Virus record (IMG/VR): IMGVR_UViG_648276656_000008
Source of the DNA: a virus
Taxonomy: Duplodnaviria; Heunggongvirae; Uroviricota; Caudoviricetes
Reading direction: 5' to 3' (one strand)
DNA: 15,267 bases
The notes under the pieces are model-generated. The model did not search any database. It had not been told where the DNA came from and saw only the letters and a program-made list of their open reading frames with translations. The position numbers were made by a program, and so were the translations under genes. Positions 14,706 to 14,859 of the stretch are shown piece after piece (position 1 is the stretch's first letter; the number at the start of each line of letters is the position of its first letter).

Positions 14706-14781
14706 GCCGACTTAGCTCAGCAGGTAGAGCAACTGACTTGTAATCAGTAGGTCACCAGTTCGATTCCGGTAGTCGGCACCA
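14706..14781 (+). tRNA. tRNA-Thr (anticodon UGU)
   Basis: Cloverleaf by hand: acceptor GCCGACT/AGTCGGC, D-stem GCTC/GAGC, anticodon stem ACTGA/TCAGT with loop CTTGTAA, T-loop TTCGATT, discriminator A and encoded CCA. T-stem ACCAG/CCGGT has one A-C mismatch. Resembles chromosomal thrU. Confidence 0.85.
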
Positions 14782-14784
14782 TAT

Positions 14785-14859
14785 GCGGGTATCGTATAAT
14801 GGCTATTACCTCAGCCTTCCAAGCTGATGATGCGGGTTCGATTCCCGCTACCCGCTCCA
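14785..14859 (+). tRNA. tRNA-Gly (anticodon UCC)
   Basis: Acceptor GCGGGTA/TACCCGC, anticodon stem TCAGC/GCTGA with loop CTTCCAA, T-arm GCGGG-TTCGATT-CCCGC, encoded CCA. Resembles chromosomal glyT. Only 3 nt separate it from tRNA-Thr. Confidence 0.85.

Follow-up and report, generated by a model that had tools for sequence, protein, structure and literature searches.

Genomic context of the tRNA pair

The DNA analysed here, referred to throughout as the window, is a stretch of 15,267 bases from a Rac-like lambdoid prophage of E. coli, collinear with a prophage in strain AMSCJX02 (L001). All 21 annotated coding sequences map in frame onto the window, each with a stop codon. The gene order of L001 runs from int, xis, ralR, recT, recE, racC, kilR and sieB through a repressor pair, ydaT and replication genes to QueH, DUF1367, YbcO, DUF1133, tRNA-Thr, tRNA-Gly, essD (holin) and rrrD (lysozyme). 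In some genomes this prophage family is partly degraded; L001, for one, has pseudogenes and IS elements. An 868-base segment around the tRNA pair is 100% identical to many E. coli chromosomes over positions 14400–15225, and tRNA-Thr and tRNA-Gly are annotated there.

ARAGORN calls exactly two tRNA genes in the window, both on the + strand and both with an encoded CCA: a thrU-like tRNA-Thr(UGU) at 14706–14781 (anticodon tgt, 14739–14741) and a glyT-like tRNA-Gly(UCC) at 14785–14859 (anticodon tcc, 14818–14820), separated by a TAT spacer at 14782–14784. Against the Rfam tRNA model RF00005, whose gathering score is 29, they reach 72.2 and 65.6 bits, respectively, over model positions 1–71 of 71. 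Since the host-identical copies carried by phage phi467 obtain comparable scores with the same model (73.8 bits for Thr and 64.9 bits for Gly), neither gene looks like a pseudogene, and the gene predictor, the covariance model and alignments agree with the initial annotation that these are complete, CCA-encoding relatives of thrU and glyT. Read from the alignment and judged by synthetase identity rules that we take to be established knowledge, the recognition elements are complete in both tRNAs, namely G1-C72, C2-G71, G35 and U36 for ThrRS in tRNA-Thr, and G1-C72, C2-G71, G3-C70, U73, C35 and C36 for GlyRS in tRNA-Gly.

The gene just upstream (13811–14353, + strand) matches PF06576 with 357 bits and, weakly, Phage_antitermQ with 27.4 bits; it is annotated as a DUF1133 family protein in RefSeq and as antitermination protein Q in phage records. 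With this Q-like late antiterminator on one side and the lysis genes on the other, the pair, which is on the late strand, occupies the interval that the initial annotation had proposed. Lambdoid and Stx phages carry tRNA genes in this slot between Q and the late or toxin genes (PMC3636060; PMC3491183), and Thr(UGU) at the Q-downstream position has been recorded for SfI, Sf6, ST64T, PS3 and phage 21 (PMC3636060). The related phage vB_EcoS-683R6 (683R6) has the same gene order as L001 (Q, tRNA-Thr, tRNA-Gly, lysis genes).

The pair has the placement of cargo, 3′ of Q and 5′ of the holin and endolysin genes on the same strand of a lambdoid prophage, and it behaves as a dispensable insert: phage vB_EcoS-673R7 (L136), with a Q gene 98.9% identical, has a hypothetical open reading frame in the slot and no tRNAs. 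Elsewhere the slot is occupied by the eplBA toxin genes (L137) or by stx2f together with the tRNAs (L005). A role as integration site (att core) was rejected, since in L001 ~15 kb separate the pair from the integrase gene, which is at the far end of the early region, and both tRNA genes are complete and internal to the prophage.

Relationship to the host genes

The two genes are nearly identical to their chromosomal counterparts in K-12. tRNA-Thr matches thrU at 75 of 76 positions, the sole change being U16 to C in the D loop (14721), while tRNA-Gly matches glyT at 73 of 75, with changes at 14790 and 14850 that together convert acceptor pair C6-G67 into U6-A67. The host alignment that the initial annotation had called for thus returns one substitution in Thr and one compensatory pair in Gly. 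The compensatory Gly change, together with the restriction of Thr changes to the D loop among common alleles (described below), counts in favour of selection on structure, as judged from the aligned sequences.

An A-C mismatch in the T stem of tRNA-Thr, taken initially as a possible mark of a diverged phage copy, is present (A52-C62, 14757/14767). The chromosomal thrU gene has the identical mismatch; it was therefore inherited from the host gene, and its use as a divergence marker is ruled out.

In the host operon the order is thrU, 8 nt, tyrU, 116 nt, glyT, 6 nt, thrT and then tufB. Removing 206 nt from the host sequence CACCA-T[caagtcc-tyrU-...ccagg]AT-GCGGG leaves exactly CACCA-TAT-GCGGG, the prophage junction, which makes a deletion the simplest origin. 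In all likelihood the cassette is a segment of the host thrU-tyrU-glyT operon that lost these 206 nt, comprising tyrU and its flanks. Sequence comparison with this operon found no similarity beyond the tRNA bodies.

Distribution and alleles

The Thr–Gly junction is widespread. A 25-base junction pattern matched at least 120 IMG/VR viral contigs and, among species-representative genomes, E. coli, Shigella flexneri, E. albertii, E. ruysiae and Citrobacter braakii; it also occurs in one 423-bp contig labelled Corallococcus. With a 45-base junction query, which cannot match the host operon, we found the junction at 1,017 places in 851 of 5,426 complete E. coli genomes (~16%), with up to five places per genome. 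Five deposited phages have it as well, among them phi467, which carries the pair with stxB on one side and the holin gene on the other.

At other loci, at least 132 copies have exactly the same TAT junction. Among 132 full copies, the Thr gene equals thrU in 70, carries U16C plus U20C in 26 and U16C alone, the allele of the window, in 8, these two D-loop substitutions being the common changes. The Gly gene equals glyT in 59 copies and has the U6-A67 pair of the window in 39, with further derivatives of U6-A67 among the remainder. In ~71 copies the dimer forms the 3′ half of a four-tRNA array (CAU, UCU or UUU, Thr, Gly) with spacers of 1, 2 and 3 nt, and other arrays read Asn-Thr-Gly; overall, the companion tRNAs carry CAU, UCU/UUU or GUU anticodons. 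Several of these companions decode rare A-ending codons.

Annotations of the exact Thr–Gly pair already exist in several phage records and hundreds of RefSeq genomes, and it is common, ordinary phage cargo. A literature search for this exact pair found no description, its record being confined to GenBank and RefSeq annotations. We likewise found no earlier description of its apparent origin by deletion from the host operon, of the conserved private promoter and covarying leader predicted in front of it, or of its probable position inside an STnc100-like unit (both described below); these additions are modest and partly inferential.

Promoter and leader

Downstream of the Q-like gene, a Q-linked segment (14354–14470, + strand) ends in a terminator-like hairpin plus T-run (stem 14433–14463), and we regard it as a putative late promoter/terminator cassette (pR′/tR′). 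vB_EcoS-673R7 shares 14300–14469 with the window and diverges thereafter. As similarity stops at ~14470, the Q-linked cassette appears to end there and the tRNAs to constitute a separate insert. A location of the tRNAs inside the short pR′-tR′ transcript is ruled out, since the conserved Q-linked segment terminates at the 14433–14470 hairpin, upstream of them. The Q21 preprint (10.1101/651190) contains no usable promoter sequence from which to place pR′.

A predicted sigma-70-type promoter precedes the pair at 14615–14642 on the + strand, with a –35 hexamer TTGCGA (14615–14620), a 16-nt spacer and a –10 hexamer TATTAT (14637–14642). It matches 9 of 12 consensus positions, and the single-sequence scan stands at chance level (4 sites found versus 3.0 expected), so that the case for it is a comparative one. 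Among the distinct upstream sequences listed, 36 of 39 have TTGNNN-16-TATTAT, or TAATAT, TATCAT or TATGAT as the –10 hexamer, 6–8 nt before the start of the leader, and the four-tRNA arrays have TTGCAA-17-TATTAT directly 5′ of their first tRNA. The pair thus probably has its own promoter, conserved across diverged flanks.

The TTGACG element that the initial annotation had read as –35-like is indeed present (14599–14604) and conserved in relatives. Its distance of 32 nt to the conserved –10 hexamer excludes it as the –35 element of that promoter, and relatives have no conserved –10 sequence 17 nt after it. It forms one of two phased hexamers on the + strand, the other being TTTACA (14589–14594), which are kept in diverged upstream families at fixed start-to-start spacings of 10 and 16 nt.

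Between the predicted start (~14649) and tRNA-Thr lies a 57-nt leader, in which a helix is predicted on the + strand (14650–14702; 14650–14655 with 14697–14702, and 14658–14661 with 14691–14694), with tandem G-A/A-G at 14656–57 and 14695–96. The fold of the window leader by itself is no more stable than that of shuffles (z = −0.62), and the evidence for the helix is therefore comparative. RNAalifold, applied to 23 distinct leaders, returned the same helix without guidance; 94.3% of cells are paired, versus 25–74% in slid-partner controls, and four pairs are changed on both sides, a number equalled by 2 of 500 shuffles. Its many G-U pairs favour a helix at the RNA level on the + strand. A covariance model of the leader matches only in front of tRNA-Thr, with the exception of two loci (L008 and L090). 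Readings of the leader as a decayed tRNA, a boxA or an attenuator were rejected: there was no tRNA or Rfam match at E values up to 5, the central leader sequence is not conserved and no T-run follows the helix.

Downstream region

On the 3′ side, the + strand carries a trailer (14860–15055) that connects tRNA-Gly to a small-RNA-like element and is homologous to the trailer of the tRNA-less unit in L008. The element itself (15056–15256) is a sub-threshold match to the full-length STnc100 model RF02076, with 32.9 bits (E ~1e-5) against a gathering score of 47. This match ends in an intrinsic-terminator-like hairpin with a long T-run (15224–15266, + strand), the end of the unit; L001 and L002 have a different hairpin plus T-run at the same position. 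A Klebsiella phage with a related Q (L138) has a bona fide STnc100 (81 bits) ahead of its holin gene.

In L008, promoter and leader run directly into the homologous trailer, the STnc100-like element and the terminator, with no tRNAs, and this unit is 61% identical to the window module minus its tRNAs. The homology of the tRNA-less unit suggests that the dimer of the window sits exactly at the leader/trailer joint of a non-coding unit, and the promoter conserved across flank families and the terminator-like hairpin at 15224–15266, both predicted, would make this unit a candidate for a moron-type autonomous element. PasD/STnc100 small RNAs have been described in the Q-to-holin interval, often with tRNA matches in their flanks, and PasA is reportedly cut from a longer transcript (bioRxiv 10.64898/2026.05.13.724894).

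These features invite a speculative composite that we hold to be rather unlikely: the Thr–Gly dimer would be a cassette within a prophage small-RNA unit (promoter, covarying leader with tandem G-A, STnc100/PasD-like RNA and terminator), expressed in the lysogen without Q, and the RNase P cuts that release the tRNAs would also yield a leader RNA and the 5′ end of the small RNA. Were this so, the supply of two tRNAs would be coupled to the production of a prophage regulatory RNA.

Processing

The 3-nt spacer was confirmed at its place between the genes. The suggestion that it leaves almost no room for separate processing did not hold: related prophage arrays have spacers of 1, 2 and 3 nt, the host separates glyT from thrT by 6 nt and thrU from tyrU by 8 nt, and in E. 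coli valV and valW, 4 nt apart, are separated by RNase P alone (PMC2190699). Set beside these, a 3-nt spacer is ordinary. In the proposed scheme, RNase P would process both tRNAs at their 5′ ends, freeing the ~57-nt leader and splitting the dimer; a single cut at G1 of tRNA-Gly would leave tRNA-Thr-CCA-UAU, whose UAU tail would presumably be trimmed back to the encoded CCA by 3′ exonucleases. The comparison with the host and with sister arrays thus corrects two misreadings, the host-inherited mismatch being no phage divergence and the short spacer no processing anomaly.

Function of the pair

To our knowledge, glyT encodes the only UCC tRNA. In MG1655, thrU encodes the only UGU tRNA (PMC12445682). 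We favour, with a probability of roughly 60%, the explanation that the prophage pair constitutes functional extra copies of these single-copy host genes, a fused cargo cassette that raises the supply of decoders for ACA and GGA; intact genes, near-identity to those of the host, conservation, context and codon bias are what the sequences show, while transcription, processing and benefit are the inferred parts of this explanation. The cassette would probably be transcribed from its own sigma-70-type promoter at 14615–14642 and, after induction, probably also by Q-modified polymerase reading through from upstream. The mature tRNAs would then raise decoder supply for ACA, along with other ACN codons, and for GGA/GGG, and a second copy of thrU and glyT could plausibly aid translation of the AT-rich prophage genes.

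Codon usage is consistent with such a demand. In the 21 coding sequences of the window, ACA accounts for 33% of Thr codons and GGA for 27% of Gly codons, versus 10% and 8% in 41 K-12 genes used for comparison (odds ratios ~4.3, p ~1e-14), and the late genes of phage 683R6 show 25% and 20%. The codon check suggested initially thus finds ACA and GGA enriched 3–4 times in prophage genes relative to core E. coli genes. The enrichment of ATA and AGA in the prophage genes is at least as strong, and the window prophage has no tRNA for either; the bias is therefore general rather than specific to ACA and GGA. Early genes show it more strongly than late ones. For SfI, which carries a Thr(UGU) tRNA downstream of Q, ACA bias has been argued as the reason (PMC3636060). 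Owing to the partial degradation of the prophage family, the current benefit to the phage is uncertain.

The main alternative, which draws on work from 2025 and which we consider unlikely, is counter-defence. The Thr(UGU) gene would replace tRNA-ThrU destroyed by the Toprim nucleases of competing prophages (P2 Old, PARIS AriB), with the Gly gene riding along or answering another tRNA-targeting toxin. The tRNA whose loss kills in P2–lambda interference is above all tRNA-ThrU, which P2 Old (P2-OLD) cuts at CNG motifs of the anticodon stem; cells are rescued by phage tRNA-Thr(UGU), that of lambdoid phage 21 among them, owing to altered motifs and a shorter stem (PMC12445682). The targets of PARIS AriB are Lys(UUU), Thr(UGU) and Asn(GUU) (PMC12409363), the tRNAs that go with Thr in related prophage arrays, as seen both here and in PMC3636060. 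In 7 of the 132 related copies, changes at positions 42–43 disrupt two pairs of the anticodon stem and abolish the C40-A41-G42 motif. The allele of the window, however, has an anticodon arm (27–43, ACTGACTTGTAATCAGT) identical to that of host thrU, as do 121 of the 132 copies, so that both CNG motifs and the AriB site U36-A-A-U-C|A41 are intact. Resistance to P2-OLD requires an altered CNG motif plus a shortened stem, and expression of host tRNA-ThrU protected little or not at all (PMC12445682). Judged by the published features of rescue tRNA-Thr(UGU) for P2-OLD (PMC12445682) and AriB (PMC12409363), arm 27–43 of the window has no CNG change, no shortening of the stem and no substitution around positions 39–41; with its host-type arm, the window allele is not P2-OLD- or PARIS-resistant. 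For the Gly half, the literature searched contained no E. coli nuclease specific for tRNA-Gly(UCC).

A related, speculative idea is that host-type copies form a pool from which OLD- or PARIS-resistant alleles arise, the position 42–43 variants in 7 of 132 copies being possible examples. With host tRNA-Thr(UGU) recently recognised as the key target of both P2 Old and PARIS, it is worth knowing that the widespread allele retains the sensitive arm and that a few relatives do not.

Less probable still, and in our estimation quite unlikely, is that the tRNAs serve mainly as punctuation, that is, as RNase P signals within a prophage non-coding transcript that free the leader and the 5′ end of the STnc100/PasD-like RNA. 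The location of the dimer exactly between the conserved leader helix and the trailer with its STnc100-like element and terminator would suit such a role, as would the homologous tRNA-less units in L008 and L090 and the reported Pas/STnc100 RNAs, which share the Q-to-holin interval and tRNA-rich flanks and include PasA, cut from a longer RNA (bioRxiv 10.64898/2026.05.13.724894). Yet the STnc100 match falls short of the Rfam gathering score, the stretch from the tRNAs to the element contains weak terminator-like sites, and elsewhere, in phi467 and in the four-tRNA arrays, the dimer has unrelated downstream flanks. Moreover, the tRNA bodies are conserved almost perfectly over their whole length, identity elements included, which exceeds what a processing signal needs.

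We regard as very unlikely the possibility that the pair is a neutral passenger with no selected phage function, being either host DNA captured not long ago or a copy that gene conversion with chromosomal thrU and glyT keeps host-like. The tRNA genes are near-identical to those of the host in flanks that are unrelated, the alleles resemble mosaics of host-type and variant segments, and scattered degenerate copies exist, one of which ARAGORN does not call. Against this stand the recurrence of the same junction, known from at least 132 copies that span several species and many flank families, the compensatory nature of the stem changes, the promoter conserved in front and the retention of every identity element in most copies. 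FaRel2, a toxin that hits both tRNA-Gly and tRNA-Thr, was set aside: it recognises pairs 1, 2, 4 and 5 of the acceptor stem, none of which is altered in the window, and its homologues come from Firmicutes and Actinobacteria, the tested Coprobacillus system giving no phage protection in E. coli (PMC11559606).

Supply of extra decoders stays our preferred explanation, and it puts a very common E. coli prophage feature in context as host-type copies of the only ACA and GGA decoders. The single-base differences from thrU and glyT (C16; U6-A67) additionally offer barcodes for copy-specific detection in lysogens.

Comparison with known systems

The closest relatives of the pair are the chromosomal genes themselves, with which it shares near-identical sequence, the A52-C62 mismatch, anticodons, identity elements and the encoded CCA. 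It differs from them in lacking tyrU and the 116-nt spacer, with Thr and Gly joined by TAT; in having neither thrT nor tufB on its 3′ side; and in its prophage location, with another promoter and a 57-nt leader of its own. In the valV–valW pair, too, very few bases separate an encoded CCA from the next tRNA (PMC2190699).

Among phage-borne tRNAs, the pair resembles the Q-downstream tRNAs of lambdoid phages (SfI, Sf6, ST64T, PS3, phage 21 and the Stx phages) in being encoded on the late strand in the same slot, ahead of the lysis or toxin genes (PMC3636060; PMC3491183). It shares the Thr(UGU) specificity with SfI and phage 21, and the argument from ACA bias applies to it likewise (PMC3636060). 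Its partner is Gly(UCC) instead of Asn or Ile/Arg, and the body of its Thr tRNA is of host thrU type rather than a diverged phage allele. Nuclease-resistant tRNA-Thr species (tRNA-Thr21 and the T5/T4-type rescue tRNAs) have in common with it the UGU anticodon, carriage by a phage and the link to a lambdoid phage (PMC12445682, PMC12409363), whereas the arm of the window is that of the sensitive host ThrU, with CNG unaltered and the stem at full length. With the STnc100/PasD small RNAs, finally, the downstream element shares its place before the lysis genes, a predicted STnc100-like fold and a terminator (bioRxiv 10.64898/2026.05.13.724894); it differs from them in its sub-threshold match and in lying 3′ of two tRNAs in what appears to be a single unit.

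Architecture of the tRNA-bearing module

The module that carries the Thr-Gly tRNA pair also occurs in a form without tRNAs, found at two loci (L008 2330-2870; L090 about 7151-7215). This form keeps the promoter and leader helix, followed by the trailer, the STnc100-like element and the terminator, and in L008 it is 61% identical to the window module minus its tRNAs. A second copy, with Thr-Gly, lies about 600 nt downstream of the tRNA-less one. The conserved 5′ leader helix (window 14650-14702, + strand), composed of 6 bp, a tandem G-A/A-G and a further 4 bp, is supported by compensatory changes (23 distinct relatives) and had no match in Rfam. 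Further upstream stand two phased hexamers, TTTACA and TTGACG (window 14589-14604, + strand), spaced 10 nt and placed 16 nt ahead of the -35 element; since the pair is kept across diverged upstream families yet lies outside any conserved promoter, it may represent a regulator site or an UP-like site.

Downstream of the tRNAs, window 15056-15256 (+ strand) matches the prophage small RNA family STnc100 over its full length at 32.9 bits (E about 1e-5), below the gathering score of 47. This STnc100-like element sits immediately 5′ of the expected lysis gene start, and a Klebsiella phage (L138) carries a clear STnc100 (81 bits, 3931-4119) at the equivalent position. The element's predicted terminator spans window 15224-15266 (+ strand). 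The last 42 bases of the window (15226-15267) comprise a CCCCCC...GGGGG hairpin followed by a run of 22 T, within which the window terminates, and depart from E. coli genomes that are 100% identical elsewhere and have another hairpin and T-run in this place.

Variation in tRNA content and sequence

Four-tRNA prophage arrays were observed in L007, L013, L019, L027, L127-L131, L134 and others, in the order CAU, UCU (Arg) or UUU (Lys), Thr(UGU) and Gly(UCC), with spacers of 1, 2 and 3 nt. Their CAU tRNA, called as Met, is possibly of the Ile2 type, and directly before the first tRNA stands a promoter, TTGCAA-17-TATTAT, whose discriminator is GC-rich. Switched anticodons were also seen in thrU-type tRNA bodies occupying the same slot (L004 1122-1197; L079; L122; NZ_CP025842.1 at 1040140): an LT-IIb phage has a UCU anticodon (Arg) with three further changes, and the others have a UUU anticodon (Lys) through G35T plus A26G and are annotated as tRNA-Lys in RefSeq. 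Separately, a 423-bp, low-coverage contig from a myxobacterial assembly labelled Corallococcus exercitus (L135, NZ_RAVW01000911.1) contains both the Thr-Gly junction and the leader of the enterobacterial prophages, and is probably contamination.

The window prophage additionally encodes a tRNA-modification enzyme as cargo, the epoxyqueuosine reductase QueH (queH, 10436-11104, + strand; PF02677, 221 bits), located in the stretch that separates the replication genes from the Q region.

Within tRNA-Thr itself, G42-U43 is replaced by UC or CC in 7 of 132 dimer copies (L012, L013, L018, L034, L036, L124 and L132), the window allele being without this change. The substitutions break two anticodon-stem pairs and remove the C40-A41-G42 motif; such alterations have been reported to render phage tRNA-Thr resistant to the prophage nuclease P2 Old (PMC12445682).
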